Shown here piece after piece: positions 13,531-54,929 of a stretch of DNA of 64,000 nt. Under the pieces are notes generated by a model. It was not told where the DNA came from and searched no databases. It worked only from the letters and a program-made list of their open reading frames with translations. A program made the position numbers and the translations under genes. Positions within the stretch are counted from its first letter, which is position 1. Each line of letters begins with the position of its first letter. The DNA is from Isurus oxyrinchus. Taxonomy: Eukaryota. The stretch lies in contig JANJGN010000140.1 in the NCBI GenBank assembly GCA_026770705.1, positions 1,178,001-1,242,000 on the forward strand, given 5' to 3'.

Positions 13531-13570
<40 letters not shown>

Positions 13571-13742
13571 CCCCCCCCCCCCTCCCCCGACACACAAACC
13601 TTAAACCAACTTATATTTCAACTCTTTCTTGGACTCGAACTCAAGTTCTGTCGAAGGGTAATGAGGACTCGAATCATCAACTCTTTTCTTCTCCGCTGAT
13701 GCTGCCAGATCTGCTGAGTTTTTCCAGGTAATTCTGTTTTTG
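13531..13742 (+). mobile_element. Penelope-like pseudo-LTR fragment, same family as 38944-44099
   Basis: Near-identical to 40695-40885 (TTCTTGGACTCGAA..CAAGTTCTGTCGAAGGGT..CTGCTGAGTTTTTCCAGGTAATTCTGTTTTTGTT). Confidence 0.88.
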
Positions 13743-13769
13743 TTATGTATTTGTAAGCCTGGCTATCTG

Positions 13770-34262: not shown

Positions 34263-34301
34263 GGTTTTTGTACGGGATTCTCGCTGCGATCTGACGCTGT
34301 G
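34263..34301 (-). promoter_or_regulatory. 23-RSS (CACAGCG-23-ACAAAAACC)
   Basis: Heptamer 34295-34301, spacer 34272-34294, nonamer 34263-34271. Confidence 0.95.
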
Positions 34302-34830
34302 CCTCACTGCACAGTAATACAGCGCCCCGTCCTCCACACTCAGTTCGCTTATATTGAGGTAACCGTTCTTTTGAGACATGTCAGCAGCCGCCAGATATCG
34401 TCCTGAAATTACATCTTCCTTCAGTGCTAAGATATTGGTGATAATCCATTTTGGTGGCCGTGCCGTTTGCTGCCGGTACCATTGCATGGAATAGATATTC
34501 TTTTCTGCATATTCACAGTCTAACTGCACCAAATCGCCCTCTGAAACCGTTATTGCAGCTGGAGCCTGAGTGACTGGATCTCCGCATATTCCGCCTGTGA
34601 GGTAGAGGAATGAAATATCAAGCAGTTAAACCGTGTTGATCAATATTTGTTTGTAGCTATGTAAGTTTGTAGAACCTCCTATTTACCCAGCTCTCGATCG
34701 TCTGGATATTTCAGATCGTTAATTGTATTAATTACCAACGCAATGTCTCTACATTAATCTACTGATCTGCCGTGATGTACTTAATCCAGTACTTACTATC
34801 CAGCAGCGCCGCCAGTATTATCAGAAACAT
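34302..34830 (-). CDS. Intact TCR alpha/delta V gene segment (leader exon 34797-34830, V exon 34302-34594)
   Basis: MFLIILAALLD|SGICGDPVTQAPAAITVSEGDLVQLDCEYAEKNIYSMQWYRQQTARPPKWII..GYLNISELSVEDGALYYCAVR; GTAAGT/cacag splice sites in phase; canonical Cys-Trp-Cys. Confidence 0.95.
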
Positions 34831-35021: not shown

Positions 35022-35036
35022 GGCGCCCTCCGCTGG
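35022..35036 (-). promoter_or_regulatory. CTCF-like motif upstream of the V promoter
   Basis: CCAGCGGAGGGCGCC, about 190 bp 5' of the ATG at 34830; conserved in the paralog at 38717. Confidence 0.65.
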
Positions 35037-37674: not shown

Positions 37675-38716
37675 GACACTTCCTACGTCTTTAACCCTGC
37701 AGTGCGAGAAAGAGCAGAAATACAGATCCCCGTCCCACTGCACTGCTGATCCAACCAATGACAGGAATGGAACAGCGGCAGCAATCTCTCCAAACACACA
37801 ATCGAGTCAGAGCGAGAGCAGCAAATGGAAGCTGTGGGCGAGTATACCGTAGACTCAATGTTGAGTGAAGTGTGCGGTGACTCTCAGCTGCACTCGGAAA
37901 TGATGGAGGGGAAATAGTGACGGTTGAACATTCAATGTGAATGACTAGCCCGCACCTGCTGACTGTTCAAGTGTCTGACAACAAATAGAGTGGGAGGGAC
38001 ATGAAGGAACAAGAATAATCGAATATTAGAGCAAAGAATTGAGGCTATTTGGCCTATCATGTCTATGCCTCATTGGAAGAGTTATCAATTCATCTTTCAA
38101 CCCCATATTTTCTACGAAGGCCGGCAGTTTTTTCTTCTTTTAAGTTGCGTATAATTTTCTTCTAAGTTACATATAATTTTCTTCTGAAAGTTTCTAATGA
38201 ATATTCTGTCATCCTTTTAGACAGTACAATCCATATTTGAACACATGGCTGTGTAATAAGTGAATATAACCTTTCCCTGTCTCTTTTCTCTTAAACTTGG
38301 CTACTTGGATTATCAAATTTTCTGCCAGTGGAAACAACAGTACACGATCTAGTTCATCAAACCTCTTATAATTTTGAGCACTTCAATTAACTACCTCCTT
38401 TAATTCTTTTACATAAGAAAAGTATTACCAATTTCCTTCGTCCATTCACATTGGAGGCCGTCATCCCAGGTACTATTCTGGTCTATTATCTCCAATATCT
38501 TGACATTCTATGTGGTTCCCTGATCCCTAAACAGCGAGTTATAAACTTTCAATATTATTTAAATACTACATAAACATCAATGGAAAAAAAAGATTGATTC
38601 TGATCAGCTCCAATTTAGACTTCTGGGGGAAAAAATAACATTCGTGTTTTGATATGTAAACCGATAAACACAAAATCTAATCAATGGCCCCCTTAACCGG
38701 ATAAAAACAGATTCCA

Positions 38717-38731
38717 CCAGCAGAGGGCGCC
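38717..38731 (+). promoter_or_regulatory. CTCF-like motif upstream of the orphaned V promoter
   Basis: CCAGCAGAGGGCGCC, 200 bp 5' of the ATG at 38931. Confidence 0.7.
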
Positions 38732-38943
38732 AAGTCGAGGTATGCTAATTAGAAAGTCACGTGTGGCCAACGTCAAAGCCAATTGATTGGTTGCCTGAGT
38801 GAGATCACAACGGGCCTAGCCCCCTGCCGATCGTGGGTGGAACAATGAGCTGAACAAAGCCCGATTCCCTCTCTCCTTTTCAATCTCTGGCTCATTCCAT
38901 TCATATTCACTGAGAGAGATTCAGTCAGACATGTTTCTCATTA

Positions 38944-41900
38944 AATAAAATCAAAGAAAACTGCGGATGCTGGAAATCCAAAACAAAAACAGAATTACCT
39001 GGAAAAACTCAGCAGGTCTGGCAGCATCGGCGGAGAAGAAAAGAGTTGACGTTTCGAGTCTTCATGACCCTTCGACAGAACTTGATTTCGAGTCCAAGAA
39101 AGAGTTGAAATATAAGCTGGTTTAAGGTGTGTGTGTGGGGGGGGCAGAGAGAGAGAGAGAGAGACAGAGGTGCTTGTGTAGACAAACAAGCAGTGATAGA
39201 AGCAGATCATCAAAAGATGTCAGTGACAATGGGACAAAAGAACACATAGGTGTTAAAGTTAAAGTTGGTGATATTATCTAAACGAATGTGCTAATTAAGA
39301 ATGGATGGTAGGGCACTCAAGGTACAGCTCTAGTGGGGGTGGGGGGAGAATAAAAGATTTTAAAATATTTAAAAATAATGGAAATAGGTGGGAAAAGAAA
39401 AATCTATAAAATTTATAGGGAAAAAAAAGGGGAAAAAAAGGGGGAAACAGAAAGGGGGTGGGGATGGGGGAGGGAGCTCACGACCTAAAGTTATTGAATT
39501 CAATATTCAGACCGGAAGGCTGTAAGGTGCCTAGTCGGAAGATGAGGTGTTGTTCCTCCAGTTTGCGTTGGGCTTCACTGGAACAATGCAGTAAGCCAAG
39601 GAGAGACATGTGGGCAAGAGAGCAGGGTGGAGTGTTAAAATGGCAAGCGACAGGGAGGTTTGGGTCATTCTTGCGGACAGACCGCAGGTGTTCTGCAAAG
39701 CGGTCGCCCAGTTTACGTTTGGTCTCTCCAATGTAGAGGAGACCACATTGGGAGCAACGAATGCAGTAGACTAAGTTGGGGGAAATGCAAGTGAAATGCT
39801 GCTTCACTTGAAAGGAGTGTTTGGGCCCTTGGACGGTGAGGAGAGAGGAAGTGAAGGGGCAGGTGTTACATCTTTAGCGTGGGCATGGGGTGGTGCCATA
39901 GGAGGGGGTTGAGGAGTAGGGGGTGATGGAGGAGTGGACCAGGGTGTCCCGGAGGGAGCGATCCCTACGGAATGCCGATAAGGGGGGGTGAAGGGAAGAT
40001 GTGTTTGGTGGTGGCATCATGCTGGAGTTGGCGGAAATGGCGGAGGATGATCCTTTGAATGCGGAGGCTGGTGGGGTGATAAGTGAGGACAAGGGGGACC
40101 CTATCATGTTTCTGGGAGGGAGGAGAAGGCGTGAGGGCGGATGCGCAGGAGATGGGCCGGACACGTTTGAGGGCCCTGTCAACGACCGTCGGTGGAAAAC
40201 CTCGGTTAAGGAAGAAGGAGGACATGTCAGAGGAACCGTTTTTGAAGGTAGCATCATCGGAACAGATGCGACGAAGGCGAAGGAACTGGGAGAATGGGAT
40301 GGAGTCCTTACAGGAAGCGGGGTGTGAGGAGCTGTAGTCGAGGTAGCTGTGGGAGTCGGTGGGTTTGTAATGGATATTAGTGGACAGTCTATCACCAGAG
40401 ATTGAGACAGAGAGGTCAAGGAAGGGAAGGGAAGTGTCAGAGATGGACCACGTGAAAATGATGGAGGGGTGGAGATTGGAAGCAAAATTAATAAATTTTT
40501 CCAAGTCCCGACGAGAGCATGAAGCGGCACCGAAGTAATCATCGATGTACCGGAGAAAAAGTTGTGTTAATTAGCACATTCGTTTAGATAATATCACCAA
40601 CTTTAACTTTAACACCTATGTGTTCTTTTGTCCCATTGTCACTGACATCTTTTGATGATCTGCTTCTATCACTGCTTGTTTGTCTACACAAGCACCTCTG
40701 TCTCTCTCTCTCTCTCTCTGCCCCCCCCCACACACACACCTGAAACCAGCTTATATTTCAACACTTTCTTGGACTCGAAATCAAGTTCTGTCGAAGGGTC
40801 ATGAAGACTCGAAATGTCAACTCTTTTCTTCTCCGCCGATGCTGCCAGACCTGCTGAGTTTTTCCAGGTAATTCTGTTTTTGTTTTGGATTTTCAGCATC
40901 CGCAGTTTTCTTTGATTTTATCTCTGTGTTTAATTGACTGCCACTGCACTTCAAGAAATGCCTACCTCCTTGAAGAAGTTCTGTTCCTCTCTGCGACAAG
41001 ATTTCCGTATCTCTCTGTTGCCTTGTTCACCTTCTTTGCTTTCCATTTCCCTCCTAGTGTTTGACAAGGTGTTTACTAAAACCCGCTTTCACAGCCACAT
41101 CTCCTTTCTCAGTGACTGCCTCCGTCTCCGACTTACCCCACGTGGATTTCAACTGAAATTCCACCCCTCATCTTTCGAACCCACCCAGGATTACCGGTAT
41201 CTCCGGGACATAAAACGTTTCTCAGACTGCTGTTCCCATCACATTCTGAAATCCACACTCAGTGCCATGCGCCGCCATATGAACACACTCGACCTATCCC
41301 TCCAGCAGCACCGCCTTACCCTTTTTCAAAGCTGCGCGTGCCCCCAGTTTCATTTTATCCTTCGGCTCATCCGACGCCTCAACAAGAAACTATTTCTCTT
41401 TCTCTCAACTGCTAAGGAACGCAAGCTCCAACAACTCATCGACACCAACACCCATCTAGGACCCTCCACCCCAGCCTGTCCCTCCGTCCCCACCCCATCT
41501 TCCAATCCCAGCCCCAGCCGTGTATTCACTATACCCCCTGACCTTCCCCTCTCCGATGCTGAACGTTCAGTGCTCAGCAAAGGACTTAGTTTCATACCCT
41601 TACGCCCTCACCTCAATGAATTTCGGGCTCGGCATGATACTGAACTCTTCTTTCGCCGTCTTCGTCTCTGGGCTCACTTCTTTGGGCAGGAGTCCTCTCC
41701 CAGTTCAACGGATCCTTTTACCCATCTCCAATATTCTCCCTCCACCTGGACCCCTCCCTCTGGATTCTTACCGTCTCTTGATCTTTTCATTGAGAACTGT
41801 CAGCGCGACATTAGTCGTCTCAATTTCTCTGCTCCTCTCACCCATTCTAACCTGTCTCTCTCTGAACTTACTGCACTCCATTCTCTCAGGTCCAACCCTG

Positions 41901-44099
41901 ACATTGTCATCAAACCCGCTGACAAGGGTGGTGCTGTTGTTGTCTGGCGCACTGACCTCTACCTCGCGGAGGCTGAGCGTCAACTCGCAGACACTTCCTC
42001 CTACCTCTCCCTGGACCATGACCCCACCACTGAACATCAAGCCATTGTTTCCAGGACTGTCACTGACCTCATCTCCTCTGGGGATCTCCCTCCCACAGCT
42101 TCCAACCTGATAGTCACCCAACCTCGGACGGCCCGCTTCTATCTCCTACCTAAAATCCACAAACAGAACTGCCCCGGTAGACCGATCGTCTCAGCTTGCT
42201 CCTGCCCCACAGAACTCATTTCTCGTTATCTTGACTCCCTTCTCTCTCCCCTTGTCCAGTCCCTTCCCACCTACATCCGTGATTCCTCTGACACCTTACG
42301 TCACATCAACAATTTCCAGTTCCCTGGCTCCAACCGCTTCCTCTTCACCATGGACGTCCAATCCCTCTACACCTCCATCCCCCACCAGGATGGTCTGAGG
42401 GCCCTTAGCTTCTTCCTCGAACAGAGGCCCGAACAATCCCCATCCACCACTACTCTCCTCCATCTGGCTGAACTTGTTCTCACGTTGAACAATTTCTCCT
42501 TCAACTCCTCTCACTTTCTCCAAATAAAAGGTGTGGCTATGGGTACCCGCATGGGCCCCAGCTATGCCTGTCTCTTTATGGGATATGTGGAACATTCCTT
42601 GTTGCAGTCCTACCCCGGCCCCCTTCCACAACTTTTTCTCCGGTACATCGATGATTACTTCAGTGCCGCTTCATGCTCTCGTCGGGACTTGGAAAAATTT
42701 ATTAATTTTGCTTCCAATCTCCACCCCTCCATCATTTTCACGTGGTCCATCTCTGACACTTCCCTTCCCTTCCTTGACCTCTCTGTCTCAATCTCTGGTG
42801 ATAGGCTGTCCACTAATATCCATTACAAACCCACCGACTCCCACAGCTACCTCGACTACAGCTCCTCACACCCCGCTTCCTGTAAGGACTCCATCCCATT
42901 CTCCCAGTTCCTTCGCCTTTGTCGCATCTGTTCCGATGATGCTACCTTCAAAAACGGTTCCTCTGACATGTCCTCCTTCTTCCTTAACCGAGGTTTTCCA
43001 CCGACGGTCGTTGACAGGGCCCTCAAACGTGTCCGGCCCATCTCCTGCGCATCCGCCCTCACGCCTTCTCCTCCCTCCCAGAAACATGATAGGGTCCCCC
43101 TTGTCCTCACTTATCACCCCACCAGCCTCCGCATTCAAAGGATCATCCTCCGCCATTTCCGCCAACTCCAGCATGATGCCACCACCAAACACATCTTCCC
43201 TTCACCCCCCTTATCGGCATTCCGTAGGGATCGCTCCCTCCGGGACACCCTGGTCCACTCCTCCATCACCCCCTACTCCTCAACCCCCTCCTATGGCACC
43301 ACCCCATGCCCACGCTAAAGATGTAACACCTGCCCCTTCACTTCCTCTCTCCTCACCGTCCAAGGGCCCAAACACTCCTTTCAAGTGAAGCAGCATTTCA
43401 CTTGCATTTCCCCCAACTTAGTCTACTGCATTCGTTGCTCCCAATGTGGTCTCCTCTACATTGGAGAGACCAAGCATAAACTTGGCGACCGCTTTGCAGA
43501 ACACCTGCGGTCTGTCCGCAAGAATGACCCAAACCTCCCTGTCGCTTGCCATTTTAACACTCCACCCTGCTCTCTTGCCCACATGTCTCTCCTTGGCTCA
43601 CTGCATTGTTCCAGTGAAGCCCAATGCAAACCGGAGGAACAACACCTCATCTTTCGACTAGGCACCTTACAGCCTTCCGGTCTGAATATTGAATTCAATA
43701 ACTTTAGGTCGTGAGCTCCCTCCCCCATCCCCACCCCCTTTCTGTTTCCCCCTTTTTTTCCCCCTTTTTTTCCCTATAAATTTTATAGATTTTTCTTTTC
43801 CCACCTATTTCCATTATTTTTAAATATTTTAAAATCTTTTATGCTCCCCCCACCCCCACTAGAGCTGTACCTTGAGTGCCCTACCATCCATTCTTAATTA
43901 ACACATTCGTTTAGATAATATCACCAACTTTAACTTTAACACCTATGTGTTCTTTTGTCCCATTGTCACTGACATCTTTTGATGATCTGCTTCTATCACT
44001 GCTTGTTTGTCTACACAAGCACCTCTGTCTCTCTCTGTCTCTCTCTGCCCCCCCACACCCACACCTTAAACCAGCTTATATTTCAACTCTTTCTTGGAC
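38944..44099 (+). mobile_element. Penelope-like retroelement: inverted 3' copy (38944-40566, minus), then pseudo-LTR (40567-40920), ORF, and 3' pseudo-LTR; TSD GACATGTTTCTCATTA
   Basis: RT and GIY-YIG ORF; near-identical inverted repeat; TSD at 38928-38943 and 44097-44112 (GAC overlaps the element end). Confidence 0.95.
40958..43714 (+). pseudogene. Penelope RT/GIY-YIG endonuclease ORF with one in-frame TAA (43316-43318)
   Basis: KPADKGGAVVVW, LLPKIHK, PGRPIVS, MDVQSLYTSI, GVAMGTRMGPSYA, RYIDD, LPFLD; then in frame CNTC..NLVYCIRCSQCGLLYIGETK..RFAEH. Confidence 0.93.
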
Positions 44100-44668
44100 A
44101 TGTTTCTCATTATACTGGCGGCTATCTTGGGCAGTAAGTACTGGATTATGTTCATAAAAACAGGTTAGCACATTGAGGCAAAGGGCTTGCACTAGCAATT
44201 AATAGGATTAACGATCAGATGTATACATATTGTGAACAGCTTGGTTCATTGGAATTTGCGCACAGTCATTTAGATAGACAGATGTTTAGATGGATCCTCT
44301 TTAACCGTATACTCTTCTGTTTTTCTACTTTCACAGGCGGGCTGTGTGCCGATCCAGTAACTCAGACCCCAGTGATGTTAAGCGTGTCAGAAGGGGGTTC
44401 GGTGCAGTTAGATTGCGAATATACAGACAAGGCTATATACAGTATGCAATGGTATCGGCATTATTCAGCACAGCCTCCAAGCTGGATAATTACCAAAGTA
44501 GTAGGGCTGAGAAAAGATGAAATCTCAGGACGATATCTGGCGGCTGCTGACAAGTCTAAATAGTACGGTTATCTCAATATAAGCAGACTGAGTGTGAAGG
44601 ATGGGGCGGTCTATTACTGTGCAGTGAGGCACAGCCTCACATAAAAGCCAGGAGCCCGTACAAAAACC
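44100..44668 (+). pseudogene. TCR V pseudogene, paralog of 34302-34830 (leader 44100-44133, V exon 44337-44629, RSS CACAGCC-23-ACAAAAACC at 44630-44668)
   Basis: MFLIILAAILG|SGLCADPVTQTP..LDCEY..MQWYRH..AADKSK*YGYLNISRLSVKDGAVYYCAVR; TAG at 44561-44563; promoter displaced to 38.7-38.9 kb by the Penelope insertion. Confidence 0.95.
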
Positions 44669-47668: not shown

Positions 47669-47684
47669 GACCGCCCTCTGCTGA
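47669..47684 (-). promoter_or_regulatory. RSS-adjacent CTCF-like motif
   Basis: TCAGCAGAGGGCGGTC, 23 bp past the nonamer; homologous motifs at 32156-32171, 37090-37105 and 51327-51342. Confidence 0.6.
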
Positions 47685-52258: not shown

Positions 52259-53222
52259 CGGTTTTGTACAGGGGCCAGACCGTTTCCCATCATTGTGAGT
52301 CTTAGAGCGCAGTAATACACGGTAGCGTCAGTCAACCGCAGACCCGTGAAGGTTAAATTGGTGAATTCATTCGAGGTCTGGAGCTCGACTGAGAAACGGC
52401 TTTTAGCAAAACCTGCTTTAACTTCACTACCAATCCAATGTTTCCATAATATAAAGGCAGGCTGTGTACCTGGGTGTTGCCAGTGCCAGTATAAATGACA
52501 GCTTCTATCTGTAGTTTCATGGGTACAGCTTAAAGTCACCGCTTTCCCTTCTGTCTTAACATGTGAGGACAGTGGATGAGTGCTGGAGTCTCCATGACCT
52601 GCATCTGAAAAAAACATGTTCAAACAGAAAAAGATCAGACCAACGGCTGTTCAAAGTTAGAACAAAAACAAAAATACCGGGAAAAACACAGCAGGTCTGA
52701 CAGCATCTGTGGAGAGGGATACAGTTGACATTTCAAGTCCGAATAACTCTTCATCAGAACTGTTCAAAATTTACGTTTTTGTTAAATATTCAGGAGATAC
52801 AGGATGTATACTGGGCCAGCATTTATTGCCGATCCCAGTTGCCCTTCATGGTGACAACTGAAGGCTTGCCGGGTCATTTCAGAGGACATTTTTTGAAAGA
52901 GGCAACAACGTTGCTGTGGGCCTGGAGTCACGCGGAGAGAAGACCAGGTAAGGGCGGCAGATTTTCTTCCCCAAAGGACATCAGTGAACGTGATGGGTTT
53001 TTATAACAATCAATTCATTGCAATTATAATCCCAGGTTCCTAATTAAATCAAAGTTCACAATTTGCCATGGCGGGAGCCGAACCTGGAACCCTAGAGCAT
53101 TAACCTGAGTTTCTGGATTACATGGCGTCCCCTCATGATTTAAAACTGAGAAAAGATCTGTGTGGTCAACAATTACTTGTCGGAAATGCCGTCCGCACAA
53201 TCCTGATGCTGAGTAGCCTCAA
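52259..53222 (-). pseudogene. TCR delta/alpha-type V with an open V exon (52298-52604) but a decayed leader (about 53177-53222, ATG changed to TTG); RSS CACAATG-23-ACAAAACCG
   Basis: GDSSTHPLSSHVKTEGKAVTLSCTHETTDRSCHLYWHWQHPGTQPAFILWK..KAGFAKSRFSVEL..LRLTDATVYYCALRL. Confidence 0.85.
52660..52762 (-). mobile_element. Short Penelope-derived insertion with a minimal hammerhead-like motif, in the V intron
   Basis: Similar to the pseudo-LTR at 40784-40885; flanked by CTGTTCAAA direct repeats (52647-52655, 52760-52768). Confidence 0.7.
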
Positions 53223-54621: not shown

Positions 54622-54929
54622 CAGTGTAGGGAGTCTTGGCACAGCAACACACCCGGATCAGAGATCAGGGCTGTACTAATCATTAACTCTGTGATCTTAG
54701 TAGTTTTACCAAACCTAGGCAAAAATCGAGCCGCAAAGTAGAATTTCCAGTTTTCTATACATCCATGGAGAGGGTGGACAACGGAGGGTGCCAGGAGTGT
54801 TGACTACTCCACAGCACACATAGGGCTTAAAAGAGCTTGGTTTGAAGGTGATGTTCAGGGTGATATTACTTCCCTCATCTGTCGCCATTTCAGCAGCCAA
54901 CTATTCTACTGTGTGTTGATGGCTCAATT
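54622..54929 (-). pseudogene. Decayed TCR V pseudogene (same family as 37.2 kb)
   Basis: LSHQHTVE*LAAEMATDEGSNITLNITFKPSSFKPYV..KTTKITELMISTALISD; heptamer TACACTG at 54622-54628, then CR1 sequence. Confidence 0.82.

Follow-up and report, generated by a model that had tools for sequence, protein, structure and literature searches.

Head-to-head insertion of a Penelope-like element at the start codon of a shark V segment

Results

The V segment and its surroundings

In the shark Isurus oxyrinchus, 5.15 kb of Penelope-like element (PLE) separates a V segment from its own promoter. The insert lies in a 64,000-nucleotide stretch of contig JANJGN010000140.1, hereafter the window, in whose coordinates all positions without a contig name are given (Table 1). 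Leader, V-set exon and 23-spacer RSS are all present, the splice acceptor (...CACAG) ends at 44336, and the homologs of the V are shark proteins. An initial annotation of this DNA had described a leader regenerated to the right of the insert, a promoter stranded on its far side and a V with a single lesion, and all three descriptions hold. The leader exon is complete and followed by its GTAAGT donor, the CTCF-like site has been left upstream together with the promoter, and the TAG codon stands alone as a defect. The RSS is identical in two empty sister copies, so the TAG is the only lesion; the sole other private change in the V exon, at 44467, is silent.

Table 1. Features of the filled site and of an open paralogous V, in window coordinates
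Feature	Position	Strand	Detail
Open paralogous V	34301-34830	-	68% aa; leader MFLIILAALLDS; 23-RSS
V promoter and 5' UTR, orphaned	38690-38927	+	98-100% to empty sister blocks; AGTCACGTG box at 38755
CTCF-like motif upstream of V promoter	38717-38730	+	exact match to the presumed consensus
Left TSD copy	38928-38943	+	ATG at 38931, now read as MFLIK-stop
Inverted 5'-truncated arm	38945-40566	-	u2061 to u3327, on to u355; ends in ~35-nt tail
Putative hammerhead-like motif, minimal, in inverted arm	39048-39078	-	CUGUCGA...GAAACGUC
Direct copy, near full-length	40567-44099	+	u1 through to u206-208; blunt join to inverted arm
Upstream pLTR and 5' UTR of direct copy	40567-40921	+	hammerhead-like core 40788-40818; donor-like GTAATT at 40868
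RT + CX4CxxC linker + GIY-YIG ORF	40958-43717	+	broken by TAA at 43316-43318
Downstream pLTR	43894-44099	+	ends early at u206-208; GAC microhomology to TSD
Right TSD copy	44097-44112	+	ATG at 44100
Leader exon MFLIILAAILG	44100-44133	+	ATG at 44100; donor GTAAGT at 44134
V exon, TCR alpha/delta type	44337-44629	+	CAG to TAG at 44561-44563
23-spacer RSS	44630-44668	+	CACAGCC-23-ACAAAAACC; identical in both empty copies

We infer that the V is of TCR alpha/delta type. A predicted shark protein, P0003, joins this V family to FGxG J-like pieces and to a constant/TM region that, by its signature, we take to be TCR alpha-like. Contig C242 holds paralogs of this V together with 10 exact 12-RSS matches (671490-694169) in a J-like array. 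A PF09291 profile search of the assembly gave no match, and a PDB sequence search for the identity of the locus returned antibody fragments only and was uninformative. On C16, 24 dispersed, near-identical 12-RSS matches (85.79-88.47 Mb) look like a cluster-type Ig locus.

Other V-like segments, several with stops, occur on both strands of the window (24181, 28881, 30606, 45641, 48034 and 52593), and two RSS among them have 24-nt spacers after CACACTG. Further afield, a 91% paralog V exists in five copies that are ~99% identical to one another (L074-L078; contig C2529 and C26 at 33.29, 33.39, 36.51 and 36.57 Mb); all break at one point before the YYC motif and have no RSS, a pseudogene amplified through block duplication.

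With what we presume to be the CTCF consensus, exact matches number two in the window, against a mean of 0 in 30 shuffles. The open paralog has a CTCF-like motif at 35036 (minus strand), and further ones lie at 47684 (minus strand), 32156, 32679, 55310 and 63967. One of the motifs lies immediately past an RSS, and two precede V leaders by ~210 nt. Such V-linked motifs recall the CTCF sites of mammalian V segments.

The inserted element

The insert consists of two copies of a PLE joined head to head. The Penelope-like identity given in the initial annotation stands, but not its picture of a single element: an inverted arm precedes a direct copy, both 3' ends point outward, and only the left end carries a tail. 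We number the unit from u1 = 40567 with a period of 3327. At that period a partial tandem creates the pseudo-LTRs (pLTRs), 96.6% identical between 40567-40774 and 43894-44099. Older pLTR fragments of the same family lie elsewhere in the window (13546-13752 and 52661-52761; 80-88% identical).

Domain searches and motifs place the element among the EN+ PLEs. The reading frame matches the RT profile PF00078 (E=3e-8; 34 bits, cutoff 29.6) and, in the same frame, the GIY-YIG profile PF01541 (E=1.4e-4; 22.5 bits, just under the cutoff of 22.6). By eye, the translation contains a CCHH motif with two Cys between GIY-like and YIG (LVYCIRCSQCGLLYIGE...EH...CH), and a linker, C-P-R-x-R-C-N-T-C, lies between RT and EN at 43307-43333. 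In the accessible text of PMC8557442, a CX2-5CxxC linker defines the Neptune clade and is absent from Penelope/Poseidon. Judged by this motif, the element is an EN+ PLE of Neptune type rather than of Penelope/Poseidon type.

Both arms carry the same TAA within the RT-EN frame, where 60 of 60 other aligned copies read AAA; exact matches number 57 with TAA versus 19,635 with AAA. A spreading sub-lineage with this stop is ruled out by these counts and by the heterogeneity of the 30 TAA loci examined, and the same two observations point to recurrent mutation. Six TAA matches form a tandem array at C1:101083407-101100475 (~3.4-kb spacing), each comprising only u2417 onward, and two more matches lie at C1 100.95 Mb.

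The putative hammerhead at u222-252 departs from the canonical core by a U at A6; the hammerhead consensus is CUGANGA, with A where this family has U. CUGUCGA-stem II-GAAACGUC accounts for 117 of 144 matches within the 12 commonest forms, U at A6 being the family norm. An Rfam search gave no hammerhead match and three chance matches only. Minimal PLE hammerheads are described in the accessible text of PMC4209133.

The target site and its empty sisters

Two empty sites establish that the insert is flanked by a target-site duplication (TSD), which has doubled the ATG. The 16-mer GACATGTTTCTCATTA occurs once at either end of the insert, is absent from both strands of the rest of the window, and occurs once in each of the two empty sister sites, which upholds the TSD originally proposed. 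Its companion claim, that the left flank resembles the paralog at 34830, is likewise supported, since left and right flanks together align to that paralog gaplessly across the site; the paralog's ATG at 34830 proves to be on the minus strand. The right repeat opens with GAC, which the element shares, so the duplication measures 13-16 nt. A single extra A (38944) sits between the left TSD and the element, and TTAA occurs on either side of the inverted arm (38941-44 and 40567-70).

The sister blocks lie in the same assembly (contigs C152 at ~202.0 kb and C26 at ~36.024 Mb), are ~99% identical to the window block and run colinear with it across 72-81 kb, with substitution of 1.05% and 1.37%. Promoter and leader are contiguous in both. 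Three copies in one assembly cannot all be alleles; one or both of the empty sites must be paralogs. We did not adopt a polymorphic allele as the reading of the insertion, given these three copies and the 98.6-99.1% likeness of other V blocks inside C26.

The window block's private branch is 0.49% (353/71,806) and patchy, with 0-44 private changes per 2 kb (window -10000 to 67400 versus C152 and C26), a pattern suggestive of conversion or recombination between these blocks. At C26:36011871-36013300 (window equivalent ~54910-54914), where window and C152 have an empty site, the C26 block carries a private 1.4-kb insert of the same PLE family; it has a tailed end and a duplication of ~5 nt.

In short-read contigs from a single sample, which may be the source of the assembly, the filled right junction occurs as 54-nt pieces (44073-44126) without mismatch in at least two of four runs, pieces that fall short of our bridging threshold of 31 letters each side. 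Contigs of the same sample contain the empty-site join in three of four runs, as a loose end. At the TAG (44561), neither of two read comparisons gave an entry, an outcome that with contigs does not demonstrate absence. Misassembly of the inverted repeat would be in keeping with read support confined to the right junction and with the trouble that tandem and inverted PLEs are known to give assemblies (PMC8557442, accessible text). We find it scarcely credible in view of a perfect TSD set against two independent empty sites, of filled right-junction contigs from two runs of one sample, and of 28 other inserts with the same layout. The insertion of a Penelope-like element at the V start codon is real, and as an event it is ordinary. 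Literature searches, which covered few subscription papers, turned up no description of this insertion and none of twin priming in PLEs of sharks.

TSDs and ends across the family

Clear TSDs are the rule in this family, and the rarity that the initial annotation ascribed to them in Penelope elements does not hold here. The family has ~20,000 exact matches to one 26-mer. We surveyed 60 stretches taken in order along C1 (first 16 Mb, L149-L208) from the first 100 matches listed, skipping two complex arrays, and obtained 74 inserts, 63 of them with both ends inside the stretch. A flanking repeat of at least 8 nt bounds 42 of the 63 position-ordered inserts, compared with 1 of 300 flank-swap controls; repeat lengths include microhomology and are thus upper bounds. 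Among head-to-head inserts, 26 of 28 have such a repeat and in 20 of 28 it measures 13-16 nt. Their TSD mode is 14-15 nt, versus 5-14 nt for single inserts.

Head-to-head inserts also follow a one-tail rule. Exactly one end is tailed in all 28, and by hand tally in 11 of 11 of a second, score-selected set; among single inserts whose end falls in the pLTR region, 11 of 29 are tailed. Family ends cluster at u316-333 and u343-366. Non-tail ends are shortened (268-309) in four of the 28 head-to-head inserts, and microhomology is frequent. The right end of the V insert, at u206-208, is shorter than all 28 of the sampled head-to-head ends. Its extra A at the tailed junction is also seen in L191.

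A probable single event primed from both cut ends

The reading we consider probable is a single head-to-head Neptune-type insertion at one of three ~99% identical V blocks, with both cut ends priming and with silencing preceding the stop. A staggered cut of 13-16 nt would have produced two nicks ~14 nt apart, each priming one cDNA. The first would have been primed at the tail start site (u355). The second would have used GAC microhomology to begin upstream of the usual second site, at u206-208 instead of ~u320, and the two 5'-truncated cDNAs would have been joined at 40566/40567. Within a single TSD the two 3' ends both point outward, so each 3' OH of the staggered cut likely primed a cDNA.

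Evidence from the whole family bears on this scheme. Fold-back copying of one arm from the other was rejected: the tail is on the longer arm in 13 and on the shorter arm in 15 of 28 inserts, which argues for two cDNAs. Rare variants are common to the arms of one insert 16 times more often than to arms of different loci (36/28,685 versus 8/103,267 columns), a pattern that fits a common source or later conversion.

The biochemistry of PAc (Poseidon, Anolis) both resembles and departs from the shark pattern, as far as the accessible text of PMC11167929 goes. There, a PLE cleaves and extends both strands in vitro, starting RT at two sites between which the tail lies, its RT crosses an uncleaved hammerhead, and ATT features in the target; the shark TSD ends CATTA. 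PAc start sites lie inside the ORF, whereas the shark sites lie in the 5' UTR. The PAc sites also show no strand difference in vitro, which counts against a one-of-each model, yet 28 of 28 shark head-to-head inserts use one of each.

Lopsided arms and their explanations

The arms of the V insert have diverged very unequally. Over 1473 nt, 14 substitutions are plus-only and 1 is minus-only. Clean columns split 10:0 (p=0.002; ~0.06 after 29 tests), rare variants split 6:0 between the arms, and the V insert is among the 2 of 29 arm pairs with p under 0.05. Equal ageing after one event would leave the arms symmetrical, so the 14:1 split counts against our best explanation, and so does the unusually short right end. 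The mean arm divergence of 0.52% nevertheless matches the 0.49% private branch of the block. RNA editing or AID was rejected as the source of the imbalance, as the changes, judged by eye, run in both directions.

A very young single insertion from two RNAs, one from a near-master and one from an older copy, could account for the imbalance; the V would then already have been a TAG pseudogene and the hit neutral. The inverted arm alone has ~1 private change in 1828 nt (0.05%, 95% upper limit 0.30%) against 0.49% on the block's branch, and the direct copy, whose spectrum is neutral and CpG-rich, has diverged by ~0.9% over its length. Across the family, arm pairs show mild overdispersion (chi2 42.3, 25 df, p=0.017), and several other V segments of the window have stops. 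We nonetheless hold this account to be possible but doubtful. Of the 55 TAA matches outside the window, the 30 examined all lack the shared set, and no source locus for the variants common to both arms was found. A 43-mer with two of the shared variants has only 5 other matches, in old copies (91-93%) without TAA, and a TAA-bearing template would require mobilisation in trans.

Alternatively, the two copies may have arrived in two steps. The direct copy would have come first, with a 16-nt TSD and a 5' TTA microhomology, and would have aged where it stood. Its 5' junction would later have received a young inverted arm, duplicating the 4 nt TTAA, and short conversion tracts would then have copied the TAA from arm to arm. 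This accounts for the TTAA on both flanks of the inverted arm and for the 14:1 split without an external source. It also suits the stretch 42921-43473, which holds three shared variants and shows no substitution difference between arms, as well as the right flank, whose private divergence (0.85% across 5.8 kb) resembles the direct copy's. The sequence of events is nevertheless improbable. It needs a second hit at most 4 nt from the first junction, while the TSD length, single tail and shortened non-tail end are all as in the head-to-head class. Moreover, of the 29 single inserts whose end falls in the pLTR region, none stops below u317, and L191 has the extra A as well.

A more elaborate version of one-event integration strikes us as unlikely: one dimeric PLE particle integrated two different RNAs, one per strand and start site, with template exchange. 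It would explain the one-tail rule in 28 of 28 inserts, the ~14-nt stagger, and a private stop shared by arms that otherwise differ 14:1. Were it true, transcription from the orphaned V promoter in thymocytes would now run into a hairpin that spans 1.5 kb and is 99% perfect.

Probable silencing of the V and the order of changes

Returning to the single event primed from both cut ends, the insertion likely silenced a redundant V, and the stop was probably gained afterwards. The initial annotation had proposed this order and suggested asking whether empty copies already carry the TAG. Both read CAG, as do 9 of 9 closest paralogs examined (L070-L078), so the proposed order passes that check. The check does not prove it: insertion and TAG are both private to the window block, the empty sites may be paralogs instead of alleles, the assembly shows no intermediate state and the arms give conflicting ages. 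By the mean arm divergence of 0.52%, the insertion is early and the TAG probably followed it; by the 0.05% of the inverted arm, the insertion is late and the TAG probably preceded it. Under neutrality, a stop is expected 0.09 times on the block's branch. By judgement, we lean somewhat towards insertion before TAG.

The leader-V unit does sit directly behind a pseudo-LTR, as the initial annotation said, but a pLTR/V chimera seems doubtful because the pLTR is cut before its putative promoter region. Exaptation, with the downstream pLTR now driving the regenerated leader-V unit, has in its favour an intact leader, splice sites and RSS directly after the pLTR, as well as transcription starts inside the pLTR in Penelope and Chlamys (PMC8557442, accessible text). 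We consider it very improbable. The pLTR ends ~100 nt short of the donor-like site (40868) and before the hammerhead-like motif, and that donor-like site by analogy marks the internal promoter, making pLTR drive of the V unlikely. In addition, the TAG voids any product, and two intact sister copies exist. A search for expression listed no RNA data set that contains the sequence.

Discussion

The insert can be set beside two familiar phenomena. In L1 twin priming, the second strand end primes internally via microhomology, yielding an inversion inside one TSD whose two parts are non-overlapping pieces of one RNA. The shark arms, in contrast, overlap in the 1.47 kb that each of them copies, and each ends at a 3' start site. 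Translocon TCR alpha/delta loci contain TE-disrupted V pseudogenes, in which a redundant V is lost via insertion and nonsense change. The shark case differs in that the TSD restores the entire leader, leaving just the promoter detached.

The layout is already published, hence not new. An inverted 5'-truncated copy, a one-sided tail and a TSD are described for Adineta vaga Pen2a_Av/Pen2 (PMC3846280), and the legend to Fig. 2 of PMC8557442 gives a general scheme of PLE layouts. As far as the accessible text describes it, Pen2 matches the shark insert in RT with C-terminal GIY-YIG, direct pLTRs, an adjacent inverted copy, a 30-40-nt tail at one end, a TSD round the whole unit and an empty site with one TSD copy. 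The shark TSD is longer (13-16 versus 8-10 nt), the shark inverted arm is 1.6 kb long and includes ORF, its internal junction has no palindrome, and the right pLTR stops before the hammerhead-like motif. The CPR-x-RCNTC linker before EN and the two Cys between GIY-like and YIG are shared with Neptune PLEs as the accessible text of PMC8557442 presents them. Unlike those, the shark site shows no microsatellite targeting and the shark family has clear TSDs.

Two oddities are unexplained: the right end is very short and shows GAC microhomology, and the arms differ 14:1. With the layout known, they carry what interest remains. The locus itself is minor: one redundant V has been lost from a large, recently duplicated family, of which intact sister copies remain. 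What it offers is a clear worked case in which two empty sites prove the TSD. The statistics of the family, one tail in 28 of 28 head-to-head inserts and a TSD mode of 14-15 nt, make a testable model of how PLEs integrate more precise: two nicks, a pair of RT start sites and two cDNAs.
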